Shown in pieces: positions 13,355 through 47,445 of a stretch of 64,000 nucleotides of DNA. How positions within the stretch are numbered: position 1 is the first letter of the stretch; each line of letters opens with the position of its first letter. The notes under the pieces were generated by a model. The model saw nothing but the letters and a program-made list of their open reading frames with translations. It was not told where the DNA came from and did not search any database. The stretch spans positions 3,182-67,181 of the forward strand of contig JAEUWB010000035.1 in assembly GCA_016786595.1 (NCBI GenBank), read 5' to 3'. A program made the position numbers and the translations under genes. This stretch comes from a bacterium. GTDB lineage: Bacteria; Bdellovibrionota_C; UBA2361; SZUA-149; JAEUWB01.

Positions 13355-13356
13355 AA

Positions 13357-15185: not shown

Positions 15186-15282
15186 AGATTCCCAATCTCC
15201 CCGCCCTTTTATAATGATCGGGTTTAGATTGAATGATACAAATCGAATCAAGCAGTCATAACAATTACAAGAGTTTAAATTA

Positions 15283-15717: not shown

Positions 15718-15818
15718 TTTTTCTGGTTTAAACAATAATCGCATTTGAAAGGCACATCTTTTATTACAATCGCCATAACAGTTCTAGAAGTTAAAAATAC
15801 CTTAAGAGTTTAAGATTT

Positions 15819-22134: not shown

Positions 22135-22560
22135 TTATTCGTCGTCGTTTGTGCCGGTTTTTTCAGTTTCGATGACGTCATGGTTACTATCGACGTCTTG
22201 TTGAATCCCATGCGTTAATAATTCGATGCGTTGACGCAGCAGTCTCGTCCAGTTTTCCCAGCCAGGCGCATCGCTGCGCTCGTCAATCATTTGCTCTAAT
22301 ACTTCAGGTTCGTCTCCTGGGTGCTCTTCGGAAATTTGATGAATTGAGGCAATTGCGAAATCTAGAGCAACGAGGATTTCTTCGTAATTTTCTTCTGATT
22401 TTAGACCGAGCGAGGCATTCTTCGATCGCACTTGAGCTCGGGCAATGGCCATGCGCAGCTCAGTTGCTGCTTGTTCAAGTTCACTAAGCTCTAATGCCCT
22501 GACCGGCTCAGAAATGAGGCGCGGGTTATGATGCGGATGGAAGTAGCGGTAAAGATCCAT
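22135..22560 (-). CDS. Hypothetical acidic protein
   Basis: ORF only, 141 aa, Glu/Asp-rich C-terminus. Confidence 0.4.
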   Translation of the reverse strand: MDLYRYFHPHHNPRLISEPVRALELSELEQAATELRMAIARAQVRSKNASLGLKSEENYEEILVALDFAIASIHQISEEHPGDEPEVLEQMIDERSDAPGWENWTRLLRQRIELLTHGIQQDVDSNHDVIETEKTGTNDDE

Positions 22561-22612
22561 TGACGAGTATTGTAGTGGGATATTTGGCTGTGCGCCAGAT
22601 ATTATTTACGAC

Positions 22613-22685
22613 CTTGAAGCTAGGCTTGAACTTCAGCTTTAAATTTAGGTTAAGGGGAAGGGTAAGTTCAAGCCTAAGCCAAAGA
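22613..22685. repeat. Repeat family B inverted pair
   Basis: CTTGAAGCTAGGCTTGAACTTCAG ... TTAAGGGGAAGGGTAAGTTCAAGCCTAAGCCAAAG. Confidence 0.6.
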
Positions 22686-22706
22686 CTAACCATTCAGTAA
22701 AATTTA

Positions 22707-23258
22707 CTATTTCCATTTAATCGAGCAGCCCACAGCGGATGTTAGCGCTGGATTGGGAGCTTCACCTGACAAAACAGCATCTAAGGCATCGCGTAGTGAA
22801 TGGACGGTCACTTTCTCTGGCTCTTGATAATTATCATCGATACGGCCGTGATAAATTAATTTTCGTTCGGCATTAAACATATAAACTTCTGGTGTGCATT
22901 GGGCGTCGTAGGCTTTGGCAACATTTTGATCGACGTCTTGGAGGTAAGGATAAGGTAAGGCCAAGGCTTTTGCCTTCTCAACCATTTTCTCAAAACTATC
23001 TTCAGGGTAGGCATCGGCGTTATTTGCGCAGATGGCAATAAACTGCACACCGCGAGGTTGATAAAATCGCGCAAGTTCGACAAGCCGAGTTTCGTAAGCT
23101 TGAGCGTAGGGGCAATGATTGCAAGTGAAAATCGTTACTAAAACTTGCTTATTGGCAAAGTCAGCTAATGAGTAGACGCGCCCATCAGTTGCTTTGAGGC
23201 TAAAATATGGTGCGGGATTTCCGAGTTTTAATTTAAGACCTTCGGCGAGACGTTCCAT
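22707..23258 (-). CDS. Thioredoxin-fold redoxin (thiol-disulfide oxidoreductase / AhpC-TSA-like)
   Basis: CxxC active site FTCNHCPYAQAY in a thioredoxin-like context. 183 aa. Confidence 0.65.
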   Translation of the reverse strand: MERLAEGLKLKLGNPAPYFSLKATDGRVYSLADFANKQVLVTIFTCNHCPYAQAYETRLVELARFYQPRGVQFIAICANNADAYPEDSFEKMVEKAKALALPYPYLQDVDQNVAKAYDAQCTPEVYMFNAERKLIYHGRIDDNYQEPEKVTVHSLRDALDAVLSGEAPNPALTSAVGCSIKWK

Positions 23259-26309: not shown

Positions 26310-27944
26310 ATGATCAGCGCTGCTGTCGAACTCCGTGCCGAAGATTTTGTTAATCGTTTCGATTTTCTTGCCAGCTATTCGCCGCTCTATAAACTCGATG
26401 GCAATTGGCCAAGTGTTGGTATTGTAGATTTAATTACGCATTCATTACGCGGCAAATCGCAGCTTGATGCCGAAGACCAACAAACCCTGGCTGGGGCTGC
26501 TTGCTATCTGGCAAGAGTTTTGGATCCGCTTTGGGAGGCTGCGGGGCTGAAAGTTAGTGCAGTGCTTGTCGATGATATTTTGGAAGTTTGGTTTGAGCAC
26601 CCTGAGCAAACTGGAGCGCGTGGCGTGCTGCCGCTAGAAAAAGCTATCGGCGCATTTCTCTATCAACCGATTTTACCGCTGCCGATCACTAAGGATTATT
26701 TTCGCATCATTCCCCCGCAGAATAATTTCTTAAGCTTACTTGCGCTTGGGTTTGCTAACTTAGCGAGCCCATTTTTTAGCCAAGACTTCCCCAGAGTGCC
26801 TGCTCCTGATGCGTGGCGAGAGCTCCTTGCCAAACAAACTGCAGTGTCCTGGAAGTTACTCTATCCTAAGCGCACCTATGGGTTAGATTATAAATTATAC
26901 GACAGGGGGTTATTTTGGCCTCCACTTGCGTGTGGAGAGACTCCCCCAGGAATAAATCACCTCAAGCTTGCTTATCAGTATTTTAGCGACCAAAAATATT
27001 CTAGTGAGCAGTTGCTCGATGCAGCGCAATTTATGGCCGTGCACCCTGATGATCAAATCTCTCTTGTGGGTCTAATGCTTTGCGCGGGGTTAAGCAAACG
27101 CGATTTACCCACCGAGGTCGTGCTGCAAGCGCGAACTAAGGGTGTCGTGATGGCGGAGCTGCGTAGTGCCGTTTCTCAATTTCGACGCGAACTGGCTGAA
27201 AGCCAAGCCCAAGTTAAGGGCGGCGCGCAGCGCAGTGTTGCTGGCGATGATTGGTTTGCCGACACGTTATTTACGCCGCAAGATAAATTTAGGTTTGAGC
27301 TTGAGCGTAAGCTTGGAATGCTGCCTTGGTTTGTGATTGATGCGCAAGATTTGCTGTTGCGGATCAAGGATTTGCAACTACTTGTGACGGCTTTAGCGTA
27401 TCTTGATCTTGATACGGCGCTTCAGGAGGCGGATCGAATTTTAGAAGCAACCCCTGGAGATTTACTGATTGCAGTTCAAAAAAATGTGCTGCTCATGATT
27501 CAAGGCAAATTCGATGATGCCCAAGCAAACTTTGAAACGCTTGCTACTGAAGTTGGAGCGGAAGAGGACGCCTTAGTGCAGGAACAGCGTGGGTTGTGTG
27601 CTTTAGCGCGAGGCGATCAGGCGCTGGCCTTGTCATGTTTGACGCGAGCAAGTGTGCTTGCCGCGACGAAGAGTAGAGAAAGTCTTTCACGAATTGGCAA
27701 TAATTATGCCTGGGCATTGATGCTTGCTAACGATTACGAGGCCGCTTTAAAAATTCTTGACGATATAATTTCTATCGATCAATACCCGGTGACAGCCCTA
27801 TTAAATAAGTTATTTATCTTGCGGGTGCTAGGCAAAGATGAAGCGGCTAAGCCGCTAGAACTAGCCTTGGCTAAATTTGCGCCCTTGGACCGTCGGGTTG
27901 TTGAGCAGTTGATTGTGGGGCAGCGGGCGGCTCAGGAGTCTTAG
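26310..27944 (+). CDS. Hypothetical 544 aa protein with a TPR-like C-terminus; paralog of the 28577-30232 ORF
   Basis: N-terminal blocks align by eye with 28577-30232 (DFVNRFDFLASYSPLYKLDGNWPSVGIVDLITHSLRGKSQ vs WQTRFQKFPLLHLDHSWFSLGTVDHLALGLRGQKDY). The C-terminal helical repeats resemble TPR. Confidence 0.6.
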   Translation: MISAAVELRAEDFVNRFDFLASYSPLYKLDGNWPSVGIVDLITHSLRGKSQLDAEDQQTLAGAACYLARVLDPLWEAAGLKVSAVLVDDILEVWFEHPEQTGARGVLPLEKAIGAFLYQPILPLPITKDYFRIIPPQNNFLSLLALGFANLASPFFSQDFPRVPAPDAWRELLAKQTAVSWKLLYPKRTYGLDYKLYDRGLFWPPLACGETPPGINHLKLAYQYFSDQKYSSEQLLDAAQFMAVHPDDQISLVGLMLCAGLSKRDLPTEVVLQARTKGVVMAELRSAVSQFRRELAESQAQVKGGAQRSVAGDDWFADTLFTPQDKFRFELERKLGMLPWFVIDAQDLLLRIKDLQLLVTALAYLDLDTALQEADRILEATPGDLLIAVQKNVLLMIQGKFDDAQANFETLATEVGAEEDALVQEQRGLCALARGDQALALSCLTRASVLAATKSRESLSRIGNNYAWALMLANDYEAALKILDDIISIDQYPVTALLNKLFILRVLGKDEAAKPLELALAKFAPLDRRVVEQLIVGQRAAQES

Positions 27945-28207: not shown

Positions 28208-28516
28208 TTAGGCTGGCTTATTCACTCCTTGATTTAGCTCTTCGAATAGATCTCGCATCGCATAGTTACATTTGCTTATGAGTTCTAGCTTTTTCTTTCG
28301 CCCCCAGCGCTTGAGCTGTTTCTCTCTTTCGAAGGCATGATAAATGTCGAAGAATTCCTCAAAATATACTAGTTTACTAGTGCAGTATTTGTGCGCAAAT
28401 CCCGATTTTAGGCCCATTCTGTGCTGTAAAACTCTGTTAATTAGATCTGCTGTAACTCCAATATACAGCACCGTGTTCCAAGCGTTAGATAAAATATATA
28501 CGTAACTGATTTTCAT
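28208..28516 (-). CDS. GIY-YIG nuclease family protein (UPF0213-like small endonuclease)
   Basis: N-terminal YVYILSNAWNTVLYIGVTADLINRVLQHR shows the GIY...YIG spacing and downstream R/E residues. 102 aa. Confidence 0.75.
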   Translation of the reverse strand: MKISYVYILSNAWNTVLYIGVTADLINRVLQHRMGLKSGFAHKYCTSKLVYFEEFFDIYHAFEREKQLKRWGRKKKLELISKCNYAMRDLFEELNQGVNKPA

Positions 28517-28576: not shown

Positions 28577-30232
28577 CTAAAGTTTCCCTAAAACTTCCTT
28601 TGTCCACTCGGGCGAATCAGGGTCAGTGAAGTAGAGGATATTTCTAAAAACCTCAGGATGGGTGGGTAAGAAATTCATCGTGGTTTTCACGTCTTGGGTA
28701 ACTAAATCAAATTTTTGCAATTGGGAATTAATCACGGCGCGATTAATTAATGAAAAAATATGCAGTGGCCGTGCTTCCAGAATATCAGAAAAGGCCTTGA
28801 GTGCTTGCTCGTTTTCGTTTTTTACCATTAAAAGTGTTGCTAAATTTGTGCGGATTAAAAGGTCTTGGCGCCTAAAGCCGCGCACTAATGATTGTGCAGT
28901 GCGAAAATAGTCAAAAGCTTGATCTGGCTTATTCATGCGTAGCGCACACAATCCCAGTAAATAATGAATCTGGGCCTCATCTTTACATTCAGGCCCATCC
29001 TTCAGGGCATCCTGTAGATTCGTGTATGCCTCCTGCATGCCGCCACGTAACATGACTAAATAGGCAGCTTGGGCACGTACGGCCGGTGCTTCGCTGGCAA
29101 GTAATTTTAAGTCCTCGCTAATTTGGCAGGCTGATTTTAGATCTAGTGCGGCAATTGCCGAAAGTAGTGGTCGCAAGCGATTACGCATTAAGTCGGCGTG
29201 TTCAAGTTTGAGCCAGGGGTGAAATCCCAACTCGGTTTCAAGTAGAATGGCATCAGCTTCGGGCTCAGCTAATTTTTCGATTTCAGTCCAGCGCTCCGTT
29301 CCCCAAATAATTTGATAGGCTTGGGCGTAGGCTTCACGCAGTTGGCAAATCCTTAGGCCTTTTGCTTCTGAAATAGCTAAGACTTCTTCAGGTAGAGCTG
29401 ATCCGGATGTTGCGGCAAGTAAAATAAATCCAAAATCAGACAACTGCTCTTCAGCAACTCGCGCTAAATTTGTGCTAAAGGCGCTAATATGATCTGTGCC
29501 AATACCAACTTCAGCTGCGTATTCGAGAAAGCGGTTAATTGCTCTAGTGTAGGGATAATCTTCTTCAATATATGGAGGCGGAAAAAGTACACCTTCCATG
29601 TAGACTTCTGGGGATTGGCCCACGAGCTCGGCAGGAAAGAGCTTGCCGTAAGTATCGGCGCAGGATTGAGCAATTTTTTTCACAGCTTGCTCTAGGGTTG
29701 GTTGGTAATCGAGAAAGCTTAATTTTTTTTCATTACCTTCACTCTGGGCACATAGTCCTAGAGCTAAACTTGCCGCGAAGAGGTTGATTAGTTGGGAATT
29801 AAAGGCGACGGGACGCAGGGTGTCTCCGATGTAGGGGAAAAGAATTTCGGGACGGCTGAGGCGTTGTGCGATTTTCTCCTGGATATGGACGAAGTATGGT
29901 GTCGGGGATTTGTCGGCAAGATTTTCCAGTGAATTTTGTGCCTCGAGGTAGATGCCGATGCGCTCACTAAATTTAATTAGTCCTTGGTCGGACTTGATGC
30001 CGACTGATTCTAGAATTGGGGCAATGATTGTGCCGAGGTAAGCTGAGATTCCGGTTAGTAATTCGAGGTCTGCGCTAGAATAGTCTTTCTGTCCGCGAAG
30101 TCCCAGGGCGAGGTGATCGACCGTGCCGAGGCTGAACCAGGAGTGATCGAGGTGGAGGAGGGGGAATTTCTGGAAGCGGGTTTGCCAGTAGGCAGCAAAG
30201 TCTTGTGCGATTTTTGAGGTTTGCTCTGTCAC
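28577..30232 (-). CDS. Hypothetical 551 aa protein with TPR-like C-terminus; paralog of 26310-27944
   Basis: See 26310-27944. Convergent orientation with its paralog. Confidence 0.6.
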   Translation of the reverse strand: MTEQTSKIAQDFAAYWQTRFQKFPLLHLDHSWFSLGTVDHLALGLRGQKDYSSADLELLTGISAYLGTIIAPILESVGIKSDQGLIKFSERIGIYLEAQNSLENLADKSPTPYFVHIQEKIAQRLSRPEILFPYIGDTLRPVAFNSQLINLFAASLALGLCAQSEGNEKKLSFLDYQPTLEQAVKKIAQSCADTYGKLFPAELVGQSPEVYMEGVLFPPPYIEEDYPYTRAINRFLEYAAEVGIGTDHISAFSTNLARVAEEQLSDFGFILLAATSGSALPEEVLAISEAKGLRICQLREAYAQAYQIIWGTERWTEIEKLAEPEADAILLETELGFHPWLKLEHADLMRNRLRPLLSAIAALDLKSACQISEDLKLLASEAPAVRAQAAYLVMLRGGMQEAYTNLQDALKDGPECKDEAQIHYLLGLCALRMNKPDQAFDYFRTAQSLVRGFRRQDLLIRTNLATLLMVKNENEQALKAFSDILEARPLHIFSLINRAVINSQLQKFDLVTQDVKTTMNFLPTHPEVFRNILYFTDPDSPEWTKEVLGKL

Positions 30233-30332: not shown

Positions 30333-30423
30333 CAAGTAGGGGGGCTACTTTCTGGAGCAGAGGGGGGCAAGGTACGGGGTTACTTTTTGAGCTTTTAGGC
30401 AAGTAGGGGGGCTACTTTTTGTC
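30333..30423 (+). promoter_or_regulatory. Two direct repeats of CAAGTAGGGGGGCTACTTT(C/T)TG, 67 bp apart, with a related G6 element between them, upstream of the 30560 operon
   Basis: 30333-30355 and 30400-30423 are near-identical. 30361-30391 (AGGGGGGCAAGGTACGGGGTTACTTTTTGAG) is related. Confidence 0.4.
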
Positions 30424-30559: not shown

Positions 30560-31663
30560 ATGCAGAAATTCATATTGATATTCTCATGCGTATTGGTGAG
30601 CGGATTTTTACCGGCACATATTGTTGCCGCCGAAGTTTGCACGAGCTTTTTCTGTGACAAGAATTCCGACCCAAACAAACTCGGATCGAAATTAATTGCT
30701 AGCACGCCAGAAGAAAATACTTCTGAAAATAAAGCAGTAGCTAATTCGAGTCCAAAGATCGAAACAACCGAGCAATCCTCTGCAACTCAGATCCAATTTG
30801 TAAATAGCGACCCGAAGTCGCACATCGTTTCCCCCGACAAGGACCCAGCGATTCGTATCAATCCTGAAGCACCTGGACCATTCAAGGCTATGGCTGAGCG
30901 CTTCCAAGCCGGCGATATGCAAACTGCATTTGCATACGCACGCCAATATGCGCGCTATCAGAATCGCCTGATGGCAGACGTTTCCGCATTAACTGCCTTA
31001 ATTGGAAAGGCGATGATTGCCGAAGGAATCATCACTGAAGAGCAATGGTTTGGAGCAGATCAATATTTAAAATACAATTTGGCGAAAGCACGCAAAGACT
31101 CAAACTCCCCGTTGAAAATTACCGAGAAAGATACGCTACCACTGATTAAGTCTGTTTCAGGCGGTGAGATTGAAATCTTTTATTTCTTTACGGTGCAAAG
31201 TGAGCACGCGCGCAGAATGAGTCCGGAAGTAGAGCGTTTGTATCGCATACTTAAAAATGATTCGCGCGTAAAAATGCTGGCTTTGAGTATGATCGATGAA
31301 AAACAAGAAATCATCGATCAATATAAACAATACACTGGGTTGACAATGCCCATCGCTCGCGGTGAAGAAATGTCAAAAGCGATGGGTATCGCCTTTGCTC
31401 CAGCAGTGGTCGTTTTATCCAAAAACGATAAGCGCGGGTACTCACGTTCTGGAGAACAAGGTTTTGAAAGTCTCTACACCTTTGTCAAGACGATTCAAGG
31501 CGAGAAAGTTGATTTAACTGCACTTGAGCAGTCAGGAATTTTATCAACGCCGATTGGAGCTGCAGCGAAATCACGTGAAGACTCAATCCGTGCCCAGTAC
31601 AAATCAGTCAAAGGAAAAGCTCAGCCAGCCAATTCTTCAGCGTCAGGGTTAAGTAGGTTTTAG
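30560..31663 (+). CDS. Secreted thioredoxin-fold protein without CxxC, candidate TraF/TrbB-like (F-type T4SS periplasmic) protein (hypothesis)
   Basis: Signal peptide MQKFILIFSCVLVSGFLPAHIVAA, then a Ser/Thr/Glu-rich linker. C-terminal 150 aa (EIFYFFTVQSEHARRMSPEVERLYRIL...KMLALSMIDE...TGLTMPIARGEEMSKAMGIAFAPAVVVLSKND) resembles the TraF thioredoxin-like fold lacking catalytic cysteines. Confidence 0.4.
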   Translation: MQKFILIFSCVLVSGFLPAHIVAAEVCTSFFCDKNSDPNKLGSKLIASTPEENTSENKAVANSSPKIETTEQSSATQIQFVNSDPKSHIVSPDKDPAIRINPEAPGPFKAMAERFQAGDMQTAFAYARQYARYQNRLMADVSALTALIGKAMIAEGIITEEQWFGADQYLKYNLAKARKDSNSPLKITEKDTLPLIKSVSGGEIEIFYFFTVQSEHARRMSPEVERLYRILKNDSRVKMLALSMIDEKQEIIDQYKQYTGLTMPIARGEEMSKAMGIAFAPAVVVLSKNDKRGYSRSGEQGFESLYTFVKTIQGEKVDLTALEQSGILSTPIGAAAKSREDSIRAQYKSVKGKAQPANSSASGLSRF

Positions 31664-31668
31664 GTGCA

Positions 31669-33537
31669 GTGATGAAACAAGTCAAAAGTTTTAATGGGAA
31701 AAATTTAATGGTGATGAATATGTTAGTAAAAATGTTTTCTCCAAATAAAATTTATACAATTTTAGTTTTGAGTGTGCTGCTTGCAAGTAGCGCGAGTGCG
31801 CAAGATAGTTCTACGGATACGGGCGGCCTTGCTGGCGTTACTGGAGCAACCGGAACGACAGGGCAAGAAAAACAAGATGACCGTGAAACGTTCTGTAAAA
31901 CACTTAGCGCAGAGCGCCGCCGCATTGATCCCTGGTGTTCACCCGAGGCGAAGGCGATGCGTGCTCGTAAAATGGATGAATTCTCCAGTGAAAGTGCCAG
32001 CTTCTTCTATCAAGATACGCAAACTGGTGACAGTAACTATAAAGAGAAAGATTACTATAAGAAGAATAACCTTGCTAAAGATGCTGGAGGTTGGAGCTTC
32101 CAATTAAATGGAATGGTTGGCGACCCGCTAGTCATTCAAAAGCTTCCACTTGAAAAAGAAGCTGGGATTAAGCAAAATGTTATTCCCGCCAATGAGCTTT
32201 ATCGCCAGTTTACTATCCAGGACTTATCTAACGACAATCAAGTTGTTTTGACTTCGATGGCGCAATTTCAGCCACTTTCTGCAATGCGCGCAAGTGCAGT
32301 GGAAAATCAAGAAATTGTTGACCAGCACATGCAATTATTTAGCACTTTGAAAGGTGTTTCTGATCTGACACTTGCATATCTCGATAAAACAGTTGCTTCG
32401 GGTTTAAATGCGGTACAGAACCAAGCTGACGCGCAAGTAACGCAAATGTTATTAAAGCAAATTTCCTGGGCAGCTAATAAGCAAGCTTCTCCTGAATTGT
32501 CACATGCATTCGCCAATACTGAAATGGCGCTGCAGAATTGCATGCAACAGTGTAACGGCGAGTTTGTTCCTGGCGTTTGTGACTACGCAGGCTGCCTAGC
32601 TAAGGTCGAGCAACTGGCAGGCAAGAAGATTGTGGATCCATTTACGCGCAAGGAAATGCCTGACGAAAGTGAATGGTCTTTGGTGCGCAAAGTTTTTGGA
32701 ATTCCACAAGGTATTAAGCTTGCTACGCCTCCACCTGCCGATATCGCGCCACGATTAAAATATGCATGTCGTTTTGCCACACATTTTGGCGATTTGACGA
32801 CTAGAGCAACCGCTGGTGCTACTGGAGGCAACGCACTTAATTACAGCTTTAGGGCTGCAAAGAATGCTCCAGCTGGCGATGAAACAAGAACCACTTGGTA
32901 TATCGACCGCTTCGCACGCAGAATTGAACGAGCAATGGTATGCGCAGTAGAGTGCTACGATAAAAACAAAAATCTTCAAAATTCAGAAGAGGGCATTATC
33001 TGTCAGGCAACAGAAGTATCACGGCCAATATGTATGTATAGTGGGGCAAATGAGGGCTCGAATGTGCAAAACATCGCCTGCGAAAAAATGAATTTCCGCG
33101 TTGCTTTAGAACGCGCTTCGCTAGGCGCGAATGTTACCTTTGCAGATATCATGCATGTTTCATCGATGCCGGAATCAACACGTTGCCGTTTTATCGAAAA
33201 CTTTTCAGGCAACTCTGCAATTGTAGCTTACTCCAAGTACCTACGCACAATGGCTGCGCAAGCAGAAGATATTTTTGTCACGCAGCGCATGGTTCCAGAG
33301 AATGAAAAAGAACTTGTTCGCGGATTAACAACTCGTGCATTCAACAAGATTAACTATGCATTTAATAACATGGCGGCAGAAAGCACGATTAAAACGATGC
33401 TTTTAGAGGCTTGGACGGAATACGACAAGCGTCGCCTTGCTGAGCAAGAAGCTGCAGCAGCCGCAAACCAGTCTGGTCGACTTAATACCGGAACACAGCA
33501 AGGACTTAAAGGTTACGGACGACCAGGTTCTCAATAA
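31669..33537 (+). CDS. Secreted Cys-rich 622 aa protein; TraN-like is a possibility, unverified
   Basis: Signal-like LVLSVLLASSASAQD and about 17 cysteines clustered in the C-terminal two-thirds (CMQQCNGEFVPGVCDYAGC, MVCAVECYDKN, GIICQATEVSRPICMYSG, NIACEKMNF). Size and Cys pattern resemble F-type TraN outer-membrane proteins. Confidence 0.5.
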   Translation: MMKQVKSFNGKNLMVMNMLVKMFSPNKIYTILVLSVLLASSASAQDSSTDTGGLAGVTGATGTTGQEKQDDRETFCKTLSAERRRIDPWCSPEAKAMRARKMDEFSSESASFFYQDTQTGDSNYKEKDYYKKNNLAKDAGGWSFQLNGMVGDPLVIQKLPLEKEAGIKQNVIPANELYRQFTIQDLSNDNQVVLTSMAQFQPLSAMRASAVENQEIVDQHMQLFSTLKGVSDLTLAYLDKTVASGLNAVQNQADAQVTQMLLKQISWAANKQASPELSHAFANTEMALQNCMQQCNGEFVPGVCDYAGCLAKVEQLAGKKIVDPFTRKEMPDESEWSLVRKVFGIPQGIKLATPPPADIAPRLKYACRFATHFGDLTTRATAGATGGNALNYSFRAAKNAPAGDETRTTWYIDRFARRIERAMVCAVECYDKNKNLQNSEEGIICQATEVSRPICMYSGANEGSNVQNIACEKMNFRVALERASLGANVTFADIMHVSSMPESTRCRFIENFSGNSAIVAYSKYLRTMAAQAEDIFVTQRMVPENEKELVRGLTTRAFNKINYAFNNMAAESTIKTMLLEAWTEYDKRRLAEQEAAAAANQSGRLNTGTQQGLKGYGRPGSQ

Positions 33538-33577: not shown

Positions 33578-36343
33578 ATGGCACAGGATGTAATACAATC
33601 AGCTGGGACATTAATCGCCGCCGCTTTAGAGACGGCAGGATATGTCTCGCAGTCGGAGGTCTTGCATGACTTCCAAGCGCTATTCGATGATTGGGCAGCG
33701 TTACTCTATATGGTTGCTGCTCTTGGCGCGATTGTTTCAGTTGCTATCTACGGAAGCTATCGAGCTGCGCGTTACTTCGTTTTCGGTCCCGCCCTTTTCC
33801 AATTATTTGTTTATTCCGTAACTCCCGCTGAAAATGTGCAATGGGCAATGGGGTCAACCCCAGTTGCTCAAGAAGCAGTGCAGGGGGCATTATCTGGAGA
33901 TCTTGCGACTTATAACGTTACGAGTGACACCAAGGTTTCTTGGGTATTTGATCAATACACAAGGTTTGTCAGTAGTGTAGTCAATAAAATTACCTCGACA
34001 ATTGTTGGAGCAAGCGAGCAGACAAATGCCGAAGGCAAGAATGAGCTTTTATTTCTTACACGCGGTGTAGTTTTGGATCAAATGTTCGCGAGCGACTTAG
34101 TCGATGGTAACTTAGTTGCAGTAGTTCGTAGCTCATTGAATCGAGAGTGCGGAGAGCTTTCAGCCGCATATCTTGGAGTTGCTGATCCGAAGCTGCAATA
34201 TGATTACTTCGAGCATCTTACAAAGAAAGCGAGTGAAATTAGAACTGAAATTGCAGCTGATGCTCCTCCGGAATCAAAGGAAGTTGCGATTGCTCAAGCG
34301 GTTGAGCTTGAAAAGGCCGTGGAGCAAGGAAAGGCAACGCGGGAGCAATACGAGGAGATTATCTGTCGCGCTGAAGAGTATAATGTAAGTCTTAAGGGTG
34401 ACCCGACTTTAAGGGAGTATTTAGTTAAAGATTTAGGCACGACAGATCTTGCGGGGTTTAAGGATCGATATGGACTGCAGCTGAATCCTTTAACTTACAA
34501 AGAAGTTGAAGCCCCTGATTTTACAATGACCTGTGGAGAATTATGGTCGTATATAGCAGCTGGAGTAAAGAAAAACGCAAAATATAGGATCGAAGAAGTG
34601 CTTGCCGAGTACACTGGCCGACCTGGCCAACCGAAGCAAAGAGTTCTGTGCAATGAAATTCGACAAGTCTTTGGAATGTCTCCGCTGCCTTCTGAGCAAA
34701 CGCCACGGGGTCAGCGAACACGTTTACGCTGTGGAAAAGAAGTTCTTGTGCAGGGTGACGTGACCGATCCCGGCGGAAATTCTGTTATCGAAGAATGTAA
34801 TTTAGAAAACGTTTTAGGTGCGATGTTGATTAAGCGCGCAATCGGACAACGTGCACCGTCGCGGTGGCTTCAAGATTTCGGATCAAGAGTGCAATTAGAT
34901 GCTAAGCTTTCAGCAGCGCAAGTTAAGTCTGAACTTGAATCTGCACAGCAAGCAGGAACTCAAATGCCAGAAGTGCTTGAGGTCGAATTCAAAAAAATTG
35001 CTTCTGTAGATGCTTTTAATAACGCTTTCGGTGAGCAGCAGACATATACCTCCTATGGATTAAGACAAGCGATTTTCTCTGCAGCTTTAACCTTTCCATA
35101 TTTTCAGGGAGTAATTTTATATCTACTCTGTATTGTTTTCCCTTTTATGGCAGTGGTTCTTGTTATGCCCGGCAAGGCAGAGTCGATTTTCACTTGGTTC
35201 TTGCTCTGGTTCTGGGTCAAATCTTGGGATATTGGTTTTGCGGTTGCGATGGTTCTGGAGAAAGTGCTTTGGAACTTAATGCCACACTATGATGTTCTCG
35301 AAAAAACATCTCTCACTGCAATTCCTCCGGAAGACATTTTAACACACGCATTATCGGGGGATCCGATATATCATATCAATACCTATTATGCGTTGATGGC
35401 GATGTCGATCATGTCGACACCAGTCTTAATGGGCTTTGGCATTTTAAAAGGTCGTGCCGCGATTCTTTCAAGTTTTACTCATGCAGTAAGTCAAACTGCT
35501 GATGAGTCAAAAGAGTTAGGAGAAGGTCGCTATGCTGTAAAGGTCATGAACATGAACCATGCGGCAATGACAGCATTTAAAAACGCCGCGGGCTTAAGTG
35601 CGCGCAGCCGGGACCTTGCTTATTCGGATCTTGCCCCATGGGGGGAAAGCGGTAGAGGAAAAACTAATGAAAGTAGCGATGGCGGTGCTGTCACAGATCA
35701 TGCACGCCAGAGTGGAATGATTCGTGGCGTTAGCTCTGGTGCTGGAGAGGTGATGAGTAGTATTCCAGGCCTTGCAGGCAAGGCTGGTAATTTTTCAAAA
35801 GGTTCTAAGGCTTCAAAGTTAGATAAGAAAAATGCCAAGCTAGATTCAATTGACTCAGGGCTGGGAATTGCCCAAACGGGCATTGATAAATATCTCAGTA
35901 ACTATAAAAGACTCTATGGCGCTGGCATGAGTCGTGAGTTTCAAGAACAGCATTGGAAAGTGCGACTTTCACATTCAGTTTTTACAATGATTGCGCAATA
36001 TAACTCGATTGATGGCGGCGGTGGCTTTGAGCTTGAGCTTTATGAGGTCAAAGCGCTTTGGTCTAGTCTCTCAAGCGCGTACAAAGAAGATACAGAAACT
36101 TTTGTTGGAGCTGCAGAAGATTTGGGTGGCGGTGCTGTAAAGGGTTTGAGTGGCGGTTTCGATAAGTTAATTGGGGGCAATCAAAAAGCCGGAAATTTTG
36201 GCCCTGTTACGGGTGGGGCGATCAAGGGTTTTGTGCGTAGTGATCTTGCAACGTCACTATATCTCTGGTCGCAAAACGACGAGGGCAATGAATTATCACC
36301 AGTGCCAATGCAAATTGATGTCTGGGAAAAGGAGCGTAAATAG
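33578..36343 (+). CDS. Tandem paralog 1 of 5: large polytopic membrane protein, VirB6/TrbL/TraG-N-like layout (hypothesis)
   Basis: N-terminal AGTLIAAALETAGYVSQSEV helix plus TM (LLYMVAALGAIVSVAIYGSY), about 400 aa Cys-containing soluble region, TM cluster with shared signature PYFQGVILYLLCIVFPFMAVVLVMPGK...WFLLWFWVKSWDIGFAVAMVLEKVLW, and a Gly-rich C-terminal domain. Confidence 0.7.
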   Translation: MAQDVIQSAGTLIAAALETAGYVSQSEVLHDFQALFDDWAALLYMVAALGAIVSVAIYGSYRAARYFVFGPALFQLFVYSVTPAENVQWAMGSTPVAQEAVQGALSGDLATYNVTSDTKVSWVFDQYTRFVSSVVNKITSTIVGASEQTNAEGKNELLFLTRGVVLDQMFASDLVDGNLVAVVRSSLNRECGELSAAYLGVADPKLQYDYFEHLTKKASEIRTEIAADAPPESKEVAIAQAVELEKAVEQGKATREQYEEIICRAEEYNVSLKGDPTLREYLVKDLGTTDLAGFKDRYGLQLNPLTYKEVEAPDFTMTCGELWSYIAAGVKKNAKYRIEEVLAEYTGRPGQPKQRVLCNEIRQVFGMSPLPSEQTPRGQRTRLRCGKEVLVQGDVTDPGGNSVIEECNLENVLGAMLIKRAIGQRAPSRWLQDFGSRVQLDAKLSAAQVKSELESAQQAGTQMPEVLEVEFKKIASVDAFNNAFGEQQTYTSYGLRQAIFSAALTFPYFQGVILYLLCIVFPFMAVVLVMPGKAESIFTWFLLWFWVKSWDIGFAVAMVLEKVLWNLMPHYDVLEKTSLTAIPPEDILTHALSGDPIYHINTYYALMAMSIMSTPVLMGFGILKGRAAILSSFTHAVSQTADESKELGEGRYAVKVMNMNHAAMTAFKNAAGLSARSRDLAYSDLAPWGESGRGKTNESSDGGAVTDHARQSGMIRGVSSGAGEVMSSIPGLAGKAGNFSKGSKASKLDKKNAKLDSIDSGLGIAQTGIDKYLSNYKRLYGAGMSREFQEQHWKVRLSHSVFTMIAQYNSIDGGGGFELELYEVKALWSSLSSAYKEDTETFVGAAEDLGGGAVKGLSGGFDKLIGGNQKAGNFGPVTGGAIKGFVRSDLATSLYLWSQNDEGNELSPVPMQIDVWEKERK

Positions 36344-36346: not shown

Positions 36347-38836
36347 ATGGCTGACTACGTATCCGCCGGAACAGAAATGGCAGCAATGCTACAGACTGCA
36401 GGTTACTTCGCGCAATCTGAAATTCTTGCCCACTTAGGCTGGATGTTTGATCAAATTGGCGTAGTGATTCTACTAGGCTGCGCAATTTTTGCCATAGTCT
36501 CTTTTGTTGTTTACGGGCGTGCCGATGCGACAAAATGGTTCTTATTGGGACCACCGCTATTTATTTGGATCCTCAGTTCTCGTATCGAAGCGCATGGAAC
36601 TAAATGGCAGTTTGGTACCTTCGACCGCGGTACTCCTAATGCAGCAGAAGTCTTTCCTTCGATGGAAGGTAAACAGATTAAAGTCTCCTGGGCCTTCCAT
36701 CAGTGGGATTTATTTGTCTCTGAGCTTTCACGCCAACTGATCGACATGTTGACCAAGAGTAGCGAAAAGCCAGATTTGCTTTTTAATGTACGTCAGCAAG
36801 TTATGGATAAAGTGATGTCATCGCGTGTTGCCGATCCGGGATTACTTGAATTAATCCATCTAAGCATGCGCGGACAGTGCGCTGAGAATACGAATTTAAT
36901 TCAACGCATGGTCGATATCGAAACGCAAGATTTGTACAGGAAATATAAAAACCCAACCGACCGTGGCGGATTAAGTCCAGAGGAAGTAAGAGCGGCTGAG
37001 GCTTTAGAGCGCGATTGGAATGCGACCAAGTATCAGCTCGATCTTAAAAGCGGTTCGCGTGAAAATAAACTTAGCGAATCGGCGCGAAACTATGTCCGTG
37101 GGAACTTAACAATTATTGAGAAGACAGGAACTGCAAGTGCCAGTGCTCCAACGGATGTCTCCTATGATGAGTGCATTGGTATAACTGGAACAGAATTAGC
37201 GAAAATGAATTTGGATCTTGCCTGTTCAAACGGAGCTGCTTGCACTGAGGAGCCGAGTGAGTTTTACGATAATGTTTCCTGCGCTCATATCTGGAATTGG
37301 GTTTATCTCGGTGCTAAGCAAGAAGCTTGTGGTGCGATTACCGAAGCGATTGACGGGAGTTTGACCACTAACGCTCAGCAGCCAGAATTGCGTGTAGAAG
37401 TAGCTAAAGAACTTTTGAGTAAGTTGACTAACGGTTCTGGAGGCGAGGCCCCCTCAGCCTATTTGCCACAGATTGTTGCCGGTTATTTTATTCGGAATGA
37501 GCTGACTCGTGACCCAAGTCGCAACTGGGCAAGCACCTTGCACCAACACCTCAGTATTGACGGCATTGAATACGATTATAAAATCAAAACCGAGTACGAA
37601 AATAATGTGCCGGGGGACTTCAGTAAAAATGAGGATATCTATAAAGGTTCGCGACTTTTACGTGAAGCACTAGATTCTTATACGCATCGCTTTACACTTT
37701 ACAGCACGGCTATGGCGATGCCCTACTTTCAAGGTGTATTGCTTTATATACTCGCACTACTATTTCCGTTCTTCTGTATTTTTATTCTTGTTCCAGGTTT
37801 TGCCGGGGCATTCTTTATTTGGCCTGCGCTTTGGATGTGGGTGAAATTCTGGGATGTCGGGTTTGCAATGGTTAAGGTCCTCGATGAATTTCTCTGGGAA
37901 ATTATGCCACACGCAAATTACGATTGGCGCTCTGCGATGGAAGGCACCGGAGAGATTACGCGAGCACCGGTTGATGCCTTGCGTGTAGCTTTTGGTTATG
38001 ATCCGGGTTACAGCCTCTCAAATTACTACCACATTCTTTCTGTTGCGCTTGTGAGTATCCCTGTAGTTTTTGGACAGGCGATTCTTGGCGGCAAAGCCGC
38101 ACTAGTGTCTCCATTTTTAAATGGCGCTAAGGCGCTTGGGCAGAAGCGTGGCGCAGATGCAGACATGATGTACGGTTCATATCAGGCAGGTGTTATCGAT
38201 AAACTGCGTGAAAAATACGCGGTAAAAACAGTTAAAAACCGCCTTCGTAAAGGCCAAGTCGCTCGAACAGGGCGTAGGGAACTCCTTGGAATTAAAGAAC
38301 AAATTGATGCCACCGAAGCAAGTCAGTCGCAAAACCTGATTAATGGTGGGGTAGGGATGGTGCTAGGCGGAGTAGCTACAGTCGCTGGAGTTATCTGCTG
38401 TTTTACTGGAGTGGGTGCTGTGGTTGGAGCACCGTTAATCGGTGCAGGAGTAGGTGCGATGGCTAGTTCAGGAATGTCTACAGCAGGGGCAATGATTGAT
38501 AAGCGTCGTTTAGCAAATCAAGGGCGAGCTGGTTACACGAAATTAAATGCAAGAATGTTATACCAAGATTTACAGAAAGACCGCAGTTATCAGGCCTTTG
38601 ATATGTATCGTGCAGCAGTTACTGACCGTATTGAGTTTTGGAACTTGCCGGATGTTGACAGTCAATCAATAGCTAAGTTGGCAACTTTTGCGACAGAGAT
38701 GCAAGCAAAAACTGGCAGCATCGATACACATCAGATCGGGAAAATGCTGGGAGATACTGCTGAGCTAGCTGAAATTGGATCATGGTTTTCTGGCAAGGGT
38801 GGTGGACCTAAACCAGGTGGAGTTGGGACACCGTAA
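36347..38836 (+). CDS. Tandem paralog 2 of 5 (829 aa)
   Basis: AGTEMAAMLQTAGYFAQSEIL, TM, soluble region, PYFQGVLLYILALLFPFFCIFILVPGF...WPALWMWVKFWDVGFAMVKVLDEFLW, and a Gly/Ala-rich hydrophobic C-terminal segment (GGVGMVLGGVATVAGVICCFTGVGAVVGAPLIGAGVGAMA). Confidence 0.7.
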   Translation: MADYVSAGTEMAAMLQTAGYFAQSEILAHLGWMFDQIGVVILLGCAIFAIVSFVVYGRADATKWFLLGPPLFIWILSSRIEAHGTKWQFGTFDRGTPNAAEVFPSMEGKQIKVSWAFHQWDLFVSELSRQLIDMLTKSSEKPDLLFNVRQQVMDKVMSSRVADPGLLELIHLSMRGQCAENTNLIQRMVDIETQDLYRKYKNPTDRGGLSPEEVRAAEALERDWNATKYQLDLKSGSRENKLSESARNYVRGNLTIIEKTGTASASAPTDVSYDECIGITGTELAKMNLDLACSNGAACTEEPSEFYDNVSCAHIWNWVYLGAKQEACGAITEAIDGSLTTNAQQPELRVEVAKELLSKLTNGSGGEAPSAYLPQIVAGYFIRNELTRDPSRNWASTLHQHLSIDGIEYDYKIKTEYENNVPGDFSKNEDIYKGSRLLREALDSYTHRFTLYSTAMAMPYFQGVLLYILALLFPFFCIFILVPGFAGAFFIWPALWMWVKFWDVGFAMVKVLDEFLWEIMPHANYDWRSAMEGTGEITRAPVDALRVAFGYDPGYSLSNYYHILSVALVSIPVVFGQAILGGKAALVSPFLNGAKALGQKRGADADMMYGSYQAGVIDKLREKYAVKTVKNRLRKGQVARTGRRELLGIKEQIDATEASQSQNLINGGVGMVLGGVATVAGVICCFTGVGAVVGAPLIGAGVGAMASSGMSTAGAMIDKRRLANQGRAGYTKLNARMLYQDLQKDRSYQAFDMYRAAVTDRIEFWNLPDVDSQSIAKLATFATEMQAKTGSIDTHQIGKMLGDTAELAEIGSWFSGKGGGPKPGGVGTP

Positions 38837-39009: not shown

Positions 39010-41145
39010 ATGCCACCAGAAACGGATGGAGTTGCAATTGGTGCTGTAGGGCACTTAATCGCTGCAGTGATGCAGACAGCTGGCATGTATGGCCAGTCTG
39101 AGATTCTTGCGACTATGCAGTTCTGGTTTCAACAAATGGGAGCGCTGATTTTTATTGCTTTCGCAGCAATGGCTCTCGGCCAACTTGTCATTTTTGGATC
39201 CTATCGCGGCGCGCTTTGGTTTGTGATCGCGCCTGTTCTCTTTCAATATGTAATTTTCTCTAAGCAAAATGTTGAGCTTACCAATTGGAAGTTTGGTAAC
39301 CGTTACGGTGAGAATGCCGGGCTAAATAGTGGAGAAGAGGAGTCAAAGGCTGCGATTGAGGAAAAGCTCAAGGAACTTAAGGTAGAGCTTCCAGAAAATG
39401 GAACAGCCTACTTATCGAATATATTTGTTGAATTTGACAAAGCAGTTTCTGCTATCGTGCAAAACACAGTAGCATTTCTAGTCGACCAAGATCGCCAAAG
39501 CGACCTTAAGTTTGTTGCCCGCATGAAATTATTCGAATCGCTCTTTCAAGAGCGACCCAATAGCGCAGGCTTGCATGAACTGATTATGACGGGTCTTGTC
39601 GGTGAGTGCGGGCAAGCGACAAATAATATGCAATCGCTCTCAAGTATTAAAATTCTAGAAGAGAAAGCCCGTGCTAAGGGTTCGAGTTTAGATCCGAAAA
39701 TTTTAGAACAGAAAAGCAAACTCGAAGAAGAACAAGCTCGCATATTTAGTGACCGCAAAGTGCAGTTTTCACGACCAGTTTGTCAATACTTGCAAGACTT
39801 ACAAGGTTGCTTCATTGGCAGCAATTTTCAGGAATTAAATTGCACACGTCCGGACTTGTACGGCTGCTATGAGCCACTATCCTACCTGCGCCCGAGTGAA
39901 CGCGGGAGTCAAGACTCGGCATCATGTAGCGACGTTTGGAAATATGTTTTCTTAGGTACATACCAGGAAGCAAAATATAAATTTGAAAAACTTGCTAAGG
40001 AAAACACCAAGCTTGGGTTGAAATGGGAAGACTTAGCAAAAGAAGTCTTGGAGAAAATTCCAGCCACTGGGGAGATTGATAATCCTGAAGTTTCTTCAGC
40101 AGCGTTTCAAGTGATTGCCGGACATTTACTACAGAACCATGTGCTGAGAACTCCTCACGGCGCATTAACTAGTGGCCTTTATGGTCGTCTGACTGAACAC
40201 TCGCAGATGACTAGTGAGATATTTGAATGGGGACAAGATGCTGAATCAATCGGGGATCAAGCATACTTATTAACGCTCAGTGGAATGCTACCTTATATTC
40301 AAGGTGTGGCCTTGTTTCTACTGTCGATTACTTTCCCATTCTTTGCGTTGTTCTTATTAATGCCAGGAAGAGTGAATACATTTTTCATGTGGCCTGCAAT
40401 GTGGATTTGGGTCAAGTCTTGGGATATTGGCTATGCACTTGTGCACATGATCGAGCAGCTGCTTTGGGAATTCATGCCGCATGTTGTACGTAGTGAACTT
40501 AGTGCTTACACAGCAGACTGGACGAATCCGAATTCAATTTGGACCACAATCTTTAGCAATGACCCAGTTTATTCGCCGAATTTATATTACTCCGTTTTAG
40601 GCGTATCGACTTTAGCAATTCCGGTGATCACGGCCCACCTGACCATGGCCAGTACTGACTTACTTGATGTATTTAACTCACGCCTGTCTTCATATGGCTC
40701 TCGTGTTCAAGCGCGTCAAAAGAACGTCGAGCGTAACCGCTTAGGAGGAACTCGAGATAATGAGTGGAAAATGGCTACTGGTGAAGCATGGGATAATGCA
40801 CGTGTCGCCTTAATGAAAAGTGAAGCTGGTAAAGCTAAGAAAAAACAAGGCGATGGTCTTTATGCCCGCTACGTCGATGCTAAAGCAAATCTTGCGCGTT
40901 TTGAGCGCAGTCACGATGATGACATTATTTGGCAAAAATCTTCAGCCAATATGCTGCGGGGTGCTCGTAAGATGAACTACAGCGCTAAATACACACAACA
41001 AGCAATCGATTCAGAAGCAGAATTGTATATCCAGGAAAAGGGATACGAGAGTGGCTTCTATGGATCAGAGAATTACGATACTACAGCGACGAATGCAGAT
41101 GCTTCAGTTTCGTCGGGTGGTGATAATGATGGTTCTGGAGAATAG
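39010..41145 (+). CDS. Tandem paralog 3 of 5 (711 aa)
   Basis: VGHLIAAVMQTAGMYGQSEIL, TM (IFIAFAAMALGQLVIFGSY), LPYIQGVALFLLSITFPFFALFLLMPGR...WPAMWIWVKSWDIGYALVHMIEQLLW. Confidence 0.7.
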   Translation: MPPETDGVAIGAVGHLIAAVMQTAGMYGQSEILATMQFWFQQMGALIFIAFAAMALGQLVIFGSYRGALWFVIAPVLFQYVIFSKQNVELTNWKFGNRYGENAGLNSGEEESKAAIEEKLKELKVELPENGTAYLSNIFVEFDKAVSAIVQNTVAFLVDQDRQSDLKFVARMKLFESLFQERPNSAGLHELIMTGLVGECGQATNNMQSLSSIKILEEKARAKGSSLDPKILEQKSKLEEEQARIFSDRKVQFSRPVCQYLQDLQGCFIGSNFQELNCTRPDLYGCYEPLSYLRPSERGSQDSASCSDVWKYVFLGTYQEAKYKFEKLAKENTKLGLKWEDLAKEVLEKIPATGEIDNPEVSSAAFQVIAGHLLQNHVLRTPHGALTSGLYGRLTEHSQMTSEIFEWGQDAESIGDQAYLLTLSGMLPYIQGVALFLLSITFPFFALFLLMPGRVNTFFMWPAMWIWVKSWDIGYALVHMIEQLLWEFMPHVVRSELSAYTADWTNPNSIWTTIFSNDPVYSPNLYYSVLGVSTLAIPVITAHLTMASTDLLDVFNSRLSSYGSRVQARQKNVERNRLGGTRDNEWKMATGEAWDNARVALMKSEAGKAKKKQGDGLYARYVDAKANLARFERSHDDDIIWQKSSANMLRGARKMNYSAKYTQQAIDSEAELYIQEKGYESGFYGSENYDTTATNADASVSSGGDNDGSGE

Positions 41146-46378: not shown

Positions 46379-47445
46379 ATACTGCCGCGTTTGCGGGAGA
46401 GCCAGCCATCTTCAAGTAATTCTCGTGGCGAAAAGTTACTGGCCTCTGAGCAGTGTAAGACCGGAACACAAACACATTCTCTCAGATTATATTGCTGATT
46501 TTGGTGATAAAGTATTGCCGCAACTCCAGCATCGCGGATCGCTTGGTTGAATCTAACTTGAATTTTCCCTTGAGGTGGCAGGAAGCTATTGTTCGCATAT
46601 AATTTATGCTCACGAAGTGTATTTAAAGTGTGTTCAATCTCTTTGGGTAAATCATCGGTGCCAAGCTCAACTAAAGGGCGAAAAGTATGAGTGCTCAGGC
46701 CAATCGTAACATGATTGTTGGAGAGTTCGGTTAAATGCTGCCAAGACATAAACGTGACATCACTCTTTAGCTCGGCGTAGTTGCGGGCAAGCTCTCCGTA
46801 GAGCCCTAAGATTATAAAGCGATTTTCTGGAGAACTTTGAGCAAGTGCTTCGGTGAGTTCATCTAAGGCGAGATAAAAATCGTTGTCGGATTCTTTTTCT
46901 AAAAGACGAAACAGCAAATCGCGCGTCGGATCTACTTTGTCTTTGGTTAGGCCTTGCTCACTTAAGTCTCTGAGTATTTTTTTACGAGATCTGAAGCAGG
47001 TGAGTAGGGCCAGAGCAAGCTTGTCTTGCCAGAGCATTTCCGCGGTCCCAAGGTATGCCGTAGCCGGAAAGATTGTGACCGGAAGTTTGAGTTCTTGAAT
47101 AATTGGCAGTGCAATGAAGTAATGTTCCAGATATGCGCCTTCTAAGATTAGACTTACCGTGAGGGGATTGATCTTGTGATTGTGACTTCGTGCTTCGATT
47201 AGATCTTCTAAAGGCATTACGGTCATATGCCTAGCAACCCAGCGCAATAAGTTTTCAAAATGTTCCGGTGTGATATAGCGGTTGCTAGCAATCGGATAGG
47301 GAAGCTTCTCTGGATCAATAATTCTTTCAAATGCAAGTAGGCGATGATTTAATCCCCTGAGGCTTGCAATTTTTTTTAAAATCCCTGAATGAAAGCTAAT
47401 TGTTTTAGCTGCTAGAAGAAAGAGATCGGCCCAAGGAGAACTCAT
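46375..47445 (-). CDS. Hypothetical protein, possibly a divergent polysaccharide deacetylase (NodB-fold)-like protein
   Basis: Weak resemblance (VSLILEGAYLEHYFIALPIIQELKLPVTIFPATAYLG vs the NodB TFDDG...PATFF pattern), but the Asp-Asp motif is not conserved. Low confidence. Confidence 0.35.
   Translation of the reverse strand: MSSPWADLFLLAAKTISFHSGILKKIASLRGLNHRLLAFERIIDPEKLPYPIASNRYITPEHFENLLRWVARHMTVMPLEDLIEARSHNHKINPLTVSLILEGAYLEHYFIALPIIQELKLPVTIFPATAYLGTAEMLWQDKLALALLTCFRSRKKILRDLSEQGLTKDKVDPTRDLLFRLLEKESDNDFYLALDELTEALAQSSPENRFIILGLYGELARNYAELKSDVTFMSWQHLTELSNNHVTIGLSTHTFRPLVELGTDDLPKEIEHTLNTLREHKLYANNSFLPPQGKIQVRFNQAIRDAGVAAILYHQNQQYNLRECVCVPVLHCSEASNFSPRELLEDGWLSRKRGSI

Follow-up and report, generated by a model that had tools for sequence, protein, structure and literature searches.

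The 64,000-nt stretch of Bdellovibrionota DNA analyzed here (contig JAEUWB010000035.1; referred to below as the window) contains a run of seven genes that raises the question of why proteins resembling parts of an F-type type IV secretion system (T4SS) should be encoded together on a chromosome, amid housekeeping genes. The original prediction for this locus proposed that the first two genes encode secreted proteins like TraF and TraN, that the five paralogs downstream fall in the size range of TraG, and that the cluster could be the mating-pair-stabilization side of an F-like apparatus repurposed for another function. The operon is a chromosomal variant of a T4SS sub-module and has not been described previously; no published description of it was found in the literature on Bdellovibrio with TraG, VirB6, or mating-pair stabilization. 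The best explanation, to which a probability of about 0.5 is assigned, is that it is a vertically inherited chromosomal operon of a Bdellovibrionota lineage that came from the traF-(traH)-traG segment of F-type mating-pair formation (MPF_F) systems and now serves as an autonomous envelope module. Repurposing was a reasonable proposal and its F-type ancestry is supported, but the part of it that concerned TraN failed.

The first gene (positions 30560 to 31663, ATG start) encodes a 367-amino-acid (aa) thioredoxin (Trx)-like protein and is followed, 5 bp downstream, by an open reading frame (ORF) of 622 codons (31669 to 33537; the gap is counted from its GTG start), the product of which was designated protein X. 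Five further ORFs, separated by gaps of 2 to 173 bp, encode the large paralogs A (921 aa; 33578 to 36343), B (829 aa; 36347 to 38836), C (711 aa; 39010 to 41145), D (809 aa; 41148 to 43577), and E (932 aa; 43580 to 46378). All seven ORFs are on the plus strand, long, intact, and closely packed. The ORF positions and the peptide strings of the 367-aa protein given in the original prediction were all found in the translation.

The same arrangement was found elsewhere. Related loci were read with no more than 10 kb of flank each, and in each of the nine other contigs that continue beyond X (L001, L002, L004, L010, L012, L013, L014, L017, and L018) the Trx-like gene precedes X, which precedes an array of genes with the Pfam domain TraG_N. 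The order in these relatives is an optional gene for a tetratricopeptide repeat (TPR) protein, then the Trx-like gene, then X, and then one to five large TraG_N-like genes; in L004, which belongs to a metagenome-assembled genome labeled Bdellovibrionota, X is followed by just one large gene. The frameshifted L003 agrees with this order, as do the short contigs L005 to L008. In L003, a long-read-type contig, X and the paralog genes are split into short ORFs of 32 to 438 aa (7068 to 16058 of that contig), and a frameshift assembly error is a more likely cause than pseudogenization. Lineages that keep the order share 23 to 46% identity. The recurrence of this gene order indicates that the arrangement in the window is not due to chance. 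The cluster always lies amid housekeeping genes and often adjoins transketolase (tkt) or 2-oxoacid dehydrogenase genes (bamA, ompH, and lpxI in L017); tkt, LOG, and pyruvate dehydrogenase (PDH) genes form flanks with conserved synteny.

The N terminus of the 367-aa protein is hydrophobic over residues 1 to 19 and continues with AAE, which is compatible with the cleavable signal peptide proposed earlier. In an AlphaFold2 model computed from the family alignment, a disordered linker region (residues 1 to 87) and a helical hairpin (residues 106 to 180) precede a Trx fold at residues 200 to 315, which has a predicted local distance difference test (pLDDT) value of about 90 and the order β-α-β-α-β-α-β-β-α. 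A variable basic tail ending in RF follows (window 31646 to 31663). The position of the CxxC motif is occupied by SEHA. Foldseek matched the model to ResA, StoA, the C-terminal domain of DipZ, DsbE/DsbF, and TlpA-type oxidoreductases (E values, 2e-6 to 1e-4), with a root mean square deviation of about 2 to 3 Å over about 115 residues and a target-normalized TM-score of about 0.7. The model, the Foldseek matches, and the SEHA sequence confirmed the earlier claim that the C-terminal part is a Trx fold without CxxC and showed that this part is ordered.

Across the 16 Trx-like family members, 8 keep CxxC (as CSWC, CHYC, CKFC, or CQYC), 7 have lost it, and 1 retains half of the motif. All 16 preserve the cis-Pro loop (xPAVVV), the N-terminal helical hairpin is conserved, and 14 of the 16 end in RF or KF at the carboxyl terminus. 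Such a conserved terminal aromatic residue is unusual in a soluble Trx-fold protein. Nine relatives of the 367-aa protein were found among 5.8 billion proteins, and all are metagenomic and unnamed.

Affinity to a particular Trx class emerged from profile-profile comparison. The family profile matched a profile of eight TraF/TrhF proteins, for which six more MPF_F plasmids were collected, at 90.8% (E value, 1.2e-6) over 98 columns that span the whole Trx domain. It matched R27 TrhF alone, which carries CQFC in the alignment, at 54% over 113 columns. The controls scored 0.2% (a Redoxin protein of the window), 0.4% (a DsbC-like protein of R27), and 16.8% over 41 columns (a DsbA-family protein of R27). 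The TraF profile likewise matched the CxxC-bearing relative P0002 at 50%, compared to 0.2% and 2.1%, over 23 to 26 columns, for the Redoxin and DsbA controls. Because the family profile favors TraF/TrhF over the Trx-fold controls examined, we conclude that the family appears, on profile similarity, to be specifically allied to the TraF/TrhF class, although it falls outside formal Pfam membership. When the family profile was compared with single F proteins by hhalign, neither F TraF (3.2%) nor F TrbB (0.4%) gave a significant match.

The same domain could instead be that of an ordinary oxidoreductase of the ResA/TlpA/DsbE type, acting, for example, in cytochrome c maturation and merely encoded beside unrelated membrane proteins. 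These oxidoreductases include the closest solved structures and the best generic sequence-profile matches: a sequence profile search of the Protein Data Bank (PDB) with the family agreed with Foldseek in returning generic oxidoreductases (including 2m72), Pfam gave the 367-aa protein only sub-threshold Thioredoxin_8 (E value, 3.9e-5) and Thioredoxin_2 matches, and NCBIfam gave a weak ResA match. A cytochrome c assembly gene is also present in the window (297 to 1019). However, ResA, StoA, TlpA, and DsbE depend on CxxC, have no counterpart of the 200-residue N-terminal extension, and show no linkage to TraG_N genes, and the window protein is the opposite on each count. The catalytic motif has been lost here and in nearly half of the family, in every locus the gene has a fixed place directly 5′ of X and the TraG_N array, despite the divergence of the loci, only 5 bp separate it from X, and the family profile prefers TraF/TrhF. 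An ordinary oxidoreductase is thus highly improbable.

The second gene product is also secreted, as had been proposed, when its start is adjusted. An identical public gene call starts at Met22 (window 31732) and yields a 601-aa protein, and from Met22 the sequence begins with a canonical signal peptide ending in ASA, followed by QD; the true start is probably 31732. In the numbering of the 622-aa ORF, X contains 13 cysteines (positions 76, 90, 291, 295, 304, 309, 367, 425, 429, 445, 455, 471, and 506), compared to the approximately 17 stated in the original prediction, and these are centrally located and spread over positions 76 to 506, not concentrated in the C-terminal part.

X had no Pfam or NCBIfam match, and word-indexed homolog searches with the single sequence or a three-sequence profile recovered only X itself. 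An exhaustive phmmer search of 1.84 billion representative proteins returned 69 proteins at E values of ≤1e-3, the self-hit included. X is 23% identical to the position-2 protein of L001 (E value, 8e-26) and has a block at residues 185 to 292 in common with the position-2 protein of L002. As judged from these matches, X founds a family that has no annotation and comprises about 68 clusters at 50% identity. Those members that were looked up are unnamed or called “hypothetical protein,” and a metagenome scan with a 12-sequence X alignment found 3 loci only. The family is characterized by a conserved block of about 115 aa (query residues 180 to 297), a C-terminal block, and 10 conserved cysteine columns, all of which are present in 40 of 59 members. 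X of the window has a cysteine cluster at 291 to 310 and keeps seven of the 10 columns, having lost those equivalent to positions 307, 310, and 513. The AlphaFold2 model from 59 sequences (pTM, 0.62; mean pLDDT, 70) is mostly α-helical, with one β-hairpin and a long C-terminal helical hairpin (502 to 616). The best Foldseek match of this model in the PDB had an E value of 1.0, and the 59-member profile found no meaningful sequence match there.

These properties bear on the earlier reading of X as a TraN-like, cysteine-rich outer-membrane adhesin for mating-pair stabilization. As might be expected of such an adhesin, X is a secreted protein with cysteines, and its gene lies close to those for TraF-class and TraG_N proteins. 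TraN has 20 conserved cysteines and is predicted to be a β-barrel outer-membrane protein (PMC7555446), whereas the X model is helical and without a match among PDB folds, and F TraN has 22 cysteines versus 13, of which 10 columns are family conserved, in X. No match of X to the TraN family (PF06986) was found at E values of ≤10, hhalign of X with F TraN gave 0.1%, and TraN, TraH, and TraU were not among the recurrent Pfam matches of the 59 family members at E values of up to 10. As far as the tools used allow, the TraN reading is refuted; an adhesin of this kind is extremely improbable, and X represents a new family.

In terms of position, TraH is a better analogue of X than TraN. Like TraH, X is secreted, has conserved cysteines and a C-terminal helical hairpin, and is encoded between a Trx-like gene and a TraG_N gene, all of which are resemblances only; hhalign comparisons with F TraH, F TraU, and R27 TrhH gave 0.1 to 0.2%. 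The position-2 proteins of L004 (10902 to 12707; 601 aa) and L008 (2280 to 4133; 617 aa), the two most divergent loci, contain 13 to 14 cysteines. They have no detectable similarity to X or to each other and were left out of the X family. Either replacement of the middle gene in L004 and L008 or a far higher rate of evolution than in the adjacent genes would account for this.

The five proteins encoded downstream of X all match Pfam TraG_N (E values, 1e-10 to 8e-4). Paralog E (9.8e-10; 38.4 bits) exceeds the gathering score of 36.1, and the others fall below it: paralog A (1e-8; 35.0 bits), paralog D (7.1e-9; 35.6 bits, covering positions 100 to 456 of the 462 in the profile), paralog C (3.7e-6; 26.6 bits), and paralog B (7.7e-4; 19.0 bits). 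They are about 25% identical to one another and have in common a core, FPF...W.WVKSWD, and two invariant loop cysteines. A profile of the paralogs matched a six-member MPF_F TraG profile at 56.8% (E value, 1.1e-4; 229 columns), in an alignment that superposes the Cys-x3-Trp loop motifs and takes in the transmembrane core. A PDB sequence search with the paralog profile gave nothing meaningful, and hhalign against the single F TraG was uninformative or negative. The Pfam matches and the profile-profile match nevertheless uphold the earlier link of these proteins to TraG.

Hydropathy analysis indicated that the paralogs are polytopic membrane proteins, with one or two N-terminal transmembrane segments and a cluster of two to four around the core motif. 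The numbers of loop cysteines are even in each case (6, 6, 6, 4, and 2 in A to E), with all six of paralog A in a large loop. Paralog B has an extra hydrophobic C-terminal segment (residues 627 to 753) that weakly matches the translocon or pore-forming proteins SseC, SseD, and NheB, and within it residues 653 to 753 match DUF4225 (27.2 bits; cutoff, 25.9). A polymorphic-toxin reading of the paralog C termini was considered and rejected, because its support consisted of these weak DUF4225, SseC, and NheB matches in paralog B alone and probably reflects hydrophobic composition. The fifth paralog of L010 (995 aa) has a weak Peptidase_M23 match (22475 to 22805).

Reciprocal BLAST searches established positional orthology for four of the paralogs. 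Paralogs A, B, and C have their best matches in L001, at the first (31% identity over 693 aa), second, and third (29% identity over 735 aa) array positions, respectively, and D has its best match at the fourth position of the L010 array. It follows that the array is ancient, has kept its order, and did not arise by recent expansion.

Such conservation also bears on whether the cluster is what remains of a decaying F-type conjugative element that had integrated, its genes being functionless relics. TraG_N and TraF-class domains are normally those of mobile elements, and the lost CxxC, the three lost X cysteines of 10, and the TraG_N scores that mostly lie under the gathering threshold could be taken as signs of decay. 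However, the seven ORFs are long, intact, and packed, and both their order and the positional orthology of the paralogs have been kept at 23 to 46% identity. The flanks are housekeeping genes with conserved synteny, scans of the window found no integrase, relaxase, or tRNA boundary at the cluster, and the X family comprises about 68 clusters at 50% identity. A functionless relic is therefore very improbable.

The closest parallel to a vertically inherited envelope operon of this composition was found in the MPF_F segments of MOBH-type plasmids, in which traF, traH, and traG (trhF, trhH, and trhG in R27; also IncC pVC1447 and SXT/IncA/C-like elements) occur in the same order, beginning with a long secreted Trx-fold protein. 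R27 TrhH served as the tblastn query for such plasmids, since the F TraH query was saturated by near-identical IncF plasmids. Genes for TraF (329 to 366 aa), TraH, and a TraG_N protein are adjacent in R27, in pVC1447, and in four plasmids from Klebsiella, Citrobacter, Providencia, and Shewanella, and in a Methylobacter plasmid, otherwise ordered alike, two genes intervene between traF and traH. In R27, a 348-aa “thioredoxin family protein” (TrhF) is encoded directly 5′ of trhH and the TraG_N protein. The plasmid middle protein is secreted, contains cysteines, has 450 to 480 aa, and is followed by a large TraG_N protein, as in the order of the window. The window operon mirrors traF-traH-traG in the order of its genes and in two of the three components. 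The differences are that the middle gene belongs to an unrelated helical family, that there are five TraG_N paralogs instead of one, and that the cluster is chromosomal and has no TraC, TraN, TraU, TraW, relaxase, or coupling protein nearby.

A second parallel concerns the catalytic motif. F TraF, which is considered a chaperone, has no CxxC and binds TraH (PMC7555446), and F TrbB, a disulfide isomerase, retains CxxC (PMC7555446, PMC11315126). F thus has one Trx lineage with and without CxxC, as does the window family (8 members with and 7 without), and the disordered N-terminal region followed by a C-terminal Trx domain in the window protein is also like that of F TraF and TrbB. The difference is that the two forms are separate genes of one system in F, whereas in the window family they are orthologs in different genomes.

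Partial sets of F-type envelope genes without the remaining T4SS have a precedent in the traN(S), traH(S), and traG(S) genes of SGI1 (PMC5389848). In the IncC/SGI1 system, TraH and TraG are specific cognate partners from one operon, and on SGI1 a traN/traHG set occurs as an orphan (PMC5389848). These SGI1 genes belong clearly to the Pfam families PF06986, PF06122, and PF07916, are located on a mobilizable island, and replace subunits in the T4SS of a helper plasmid. Compared to these, the window operon is core chromosomal, far more divergent, and multi-paralogous, and it has no known helper.

The remainder of an F-type system was not found near the cluster. When about 250 kb of sequence (the window plus 16 related loci) was searched by tblastn with 18 F Tra proteins, no homolog of TraC/VirB4, TraB, TraK, TraV, TraE, TraL, TraA, TraU, TraW, TrbC, TraD, or TraI was detected, and none of the 44 window ORFs scanned matched a T4SS family of Pfam other than TraG_N. 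The window and the related loci contain no complete MPF_F system, with VirB4/TraC, core, pilin, and F-specific genes. L010 contains, 7 kb upstream of its cluster (1242 to 4563), a VirD4/TraD-type coupling protein (with T4SS-DNA_transf, TrwB_AAD_bind, and TraG-D_C domains), a 170-aa ORF, and VapBC. No other locus in this set has such a coupling protein, and its position beside VapBC suggests an unrelated insertion.

Alternatively, the operon might be a single locus of a T4SS that is complete but dispersed and whose ATPases, outer-membrane core, and pilin are encoded elsewhere in the genome, as in Rickettsiales. In Rickettsiales, four to five tandem, ordered, and enlarged VirB6/TraG_N-class paralogs (rvhB6a to -e) are conserved across the lineage; these tandem VirB6 paralogs are apart from virB8 to -11 and virD4, and the arrays follow virB3-virB4 of a P-type T4SS. 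The five ordered paralogs of the window resemble the rvhB6 arrays, the coupling protein in L010 could belong to such a system, and the view taken here covers 64 kb of this genome and up to 10 kb of flank per relative. The window array differs from the rvhB6 arrays in that it follows the Trx-like gene and X, its domain is F-type TraG_N, and no VirB3 or VirB4 gene is adjacent. The negative tblastn searches over about 250 kb, the negative Pfam scans of the window ORFs, and the restriction of the coupling protein to one locus, beside VapBC, make a dispersed T4SS unlikely.

If the operon is instead an autonomous module derived from traF-(traH)-traG, its first product would be a periplasmic folding or assembly factor of the TraF/TrhF class. 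In the lineages that keep CxxC, about half, it would probably serve, like TrbB, as an oxidoreductase or isomerase dedicated to disulfides of particular clients. The SEHA form of the window, in which the cis-Pro loop and the hairpin are kept, would most likely be a redox-inactive chaperone or assembly subunit, in analogy to F TraF. Its clients or partners are probably X, which has 10 family-conserved cysteine columns and occupies the position that TraH has on plasmids, and the cysteine-bearing loops of the five TraG_N/VirB6-like proteins. Because the paralogs are ancient, ordered, and nonredundant, they probably form one hetero-oligomeric inner-membrane complex.

Several results weigh against deriving the operon from the plasmid segment. 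The 367-aa sequence by itself matched the TraF profile at 2.3%, although in register over 105 columns. The TraF family model of Pfam (PF13728) did not match it at E values of ≤10 and matched two of its nine relatives (best E value, 0.038); Pfam ranked the generic Thioredoxin_8 and Thioredoxin_2 models, which match eight of the nine relatives, over TraF. The TraF-like call of the original prediction is accordingly upheld by the family profile match (90.8% versus 0.2 to 17% for controls) but not by Pfam. Neither TraH nor another Tra homolog was found with the Trx-like gene in the window or the related loci, where a full F-type region would include them. The alignment to TraF/TrhF is limited to the Trx domain, the N-terminal halves being unalignable. 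The 59-member X profile matched an eight-member TraH profile at 1.5% (E value, 0.035; hhalign), and the parallel with traF-traH-traG therefore rests on gene position and coarse features. The N-terminal transmembrane segments of the paralogs number one or two, which leaves the topology of the cysteine-bearing loops ambiguous. Finally, the loss of X cysteines followed the loss of CxxC in its partner as a weak, nonsignificant trend (means of 7.8/8 and 6.25/8 conserved columns; nine loci).

A more specific proposal is that the operon encodes an ATPase-free envelope machine, domesticated by a Bdellovibrionota clade from the TraF-TraH-TraG “mating-pair” side for contact with other bacterial cells and not for DNA transfer. 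It would consist of five specialized TraG_N subunits, X as a new helical partner in the periplasm, and a Trx-fold assembly factor. Its role would be, for example, in a predator-prey junction, in entry exclusion or self-recognition, or in the delivery of variable C-terminal domains. Such a contact function is speculative and, at present, quite unlikely.

Genes for TPR-containing proteins precede the operon. A 544-aa protein (26310 to 27944, plus strand) with a weak TPR_2 match and no signal peptide, and thus presumably cytoplasmic, is a conserved upstream neighbor: it has 31% and 28% full-length identity to the product of the gene directly 5′ of the Trx-like gene in L001 and L002, respectively, and a gene for 531 to 541 aa occupies its position in L005, L006, L014, and L018. 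The TPR gene is doubled in the window, and the other loci have a single, plus-oriented copy. The second copy is inverted (28577 to 30232, minus strand) and encodes a 551-aa paralog with TPR_1 and TPR_2 matches that is 24% identical to the 544-aa copy and 28% identical to the L001 and L002 orthologs; a GIY-YIG nuclease gene (28208 to 28516) separates the two.

The 18-mer AAGTAGGGGGGCTACTTT, in which a 6-bp inverted repeat flanks G5, occurs in two exact copies in the divergent promoter region 5′ of the operon, on the plus strand at 30334 to 30351 and 30401 to 30418 (span, 30334 to 30418). These copies, 67 bp apart, are the only two matches in the window, compared to 0.02 expected, and the 18-mer is absent from all related loci. 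The pair could be operators or small hairpins. Scans for promoters and terminators did not rise above background and defined no boundaries for the operon. Downstream, a polysaccharide deacetylase gene (46375 to 47445, minus strand; Polysacc_deac_1 match) is a recurrent neighbor, with homologs that adjoin the cluster in L002, L003, and L010; its membership in the operon is uncertain.

Housekeeping genes in the window include those for cytochrome c assembly, an AddA-like helicase, metH, cysS, transketolase, kup, a rhomboid protein, and PDH E1, E2, and E3. Among them are genes for a 255-aa Fic/DOC-domain protein (11132 to 11899, minus strand) and a 210-aa protein like dual-specificity or tyrosine phosphatases (48948 to 49580), with PTP-NADK and polymorphic-toxin DSP-PTPase matches. 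Two RAMP-superfamily proteins (328 and 405 aa) are encoded on either side of an unannotated 264-aa gene at 52067 to 55498, which suggests a type III CRISPR-Cas or related module; a tandem-repeat scan found no CRISPR array in the window. A CRISPR-linked function of the operon was rejected, as the RAMP genes are 6 kb downstream, past unrelated genes. A 94-bp unit repeated 3.2 times (63237 to 63535; 97% identity; score, 577) lies 3′ of the lipoamide dehydrogenase gene and is not CRISPR-like, because it has no spacers.

T4SS components are usually studied in mobile conjugation or effector machines, whereas here a subset of them makes up a core operon that is inherited vertically, in a phylum noted for predatory interactions between cells. 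Seven “hypothetical proteins” gain testable annotations, among them a new family, X, with a 10-cysteine signature. Within a single family of orthologs, CxxC has been lost repeatedly in particular lineages, which constitutes a clean natural experiment on the TraF (chaperone) and TrbB (isomerase) forms. If the module works alone, it would be a new example of the exaptation of secretion-system parts and would offer a natural system in which the roles of TraG_N and TraF-class proteins can be studied without a pilus and ATPases.

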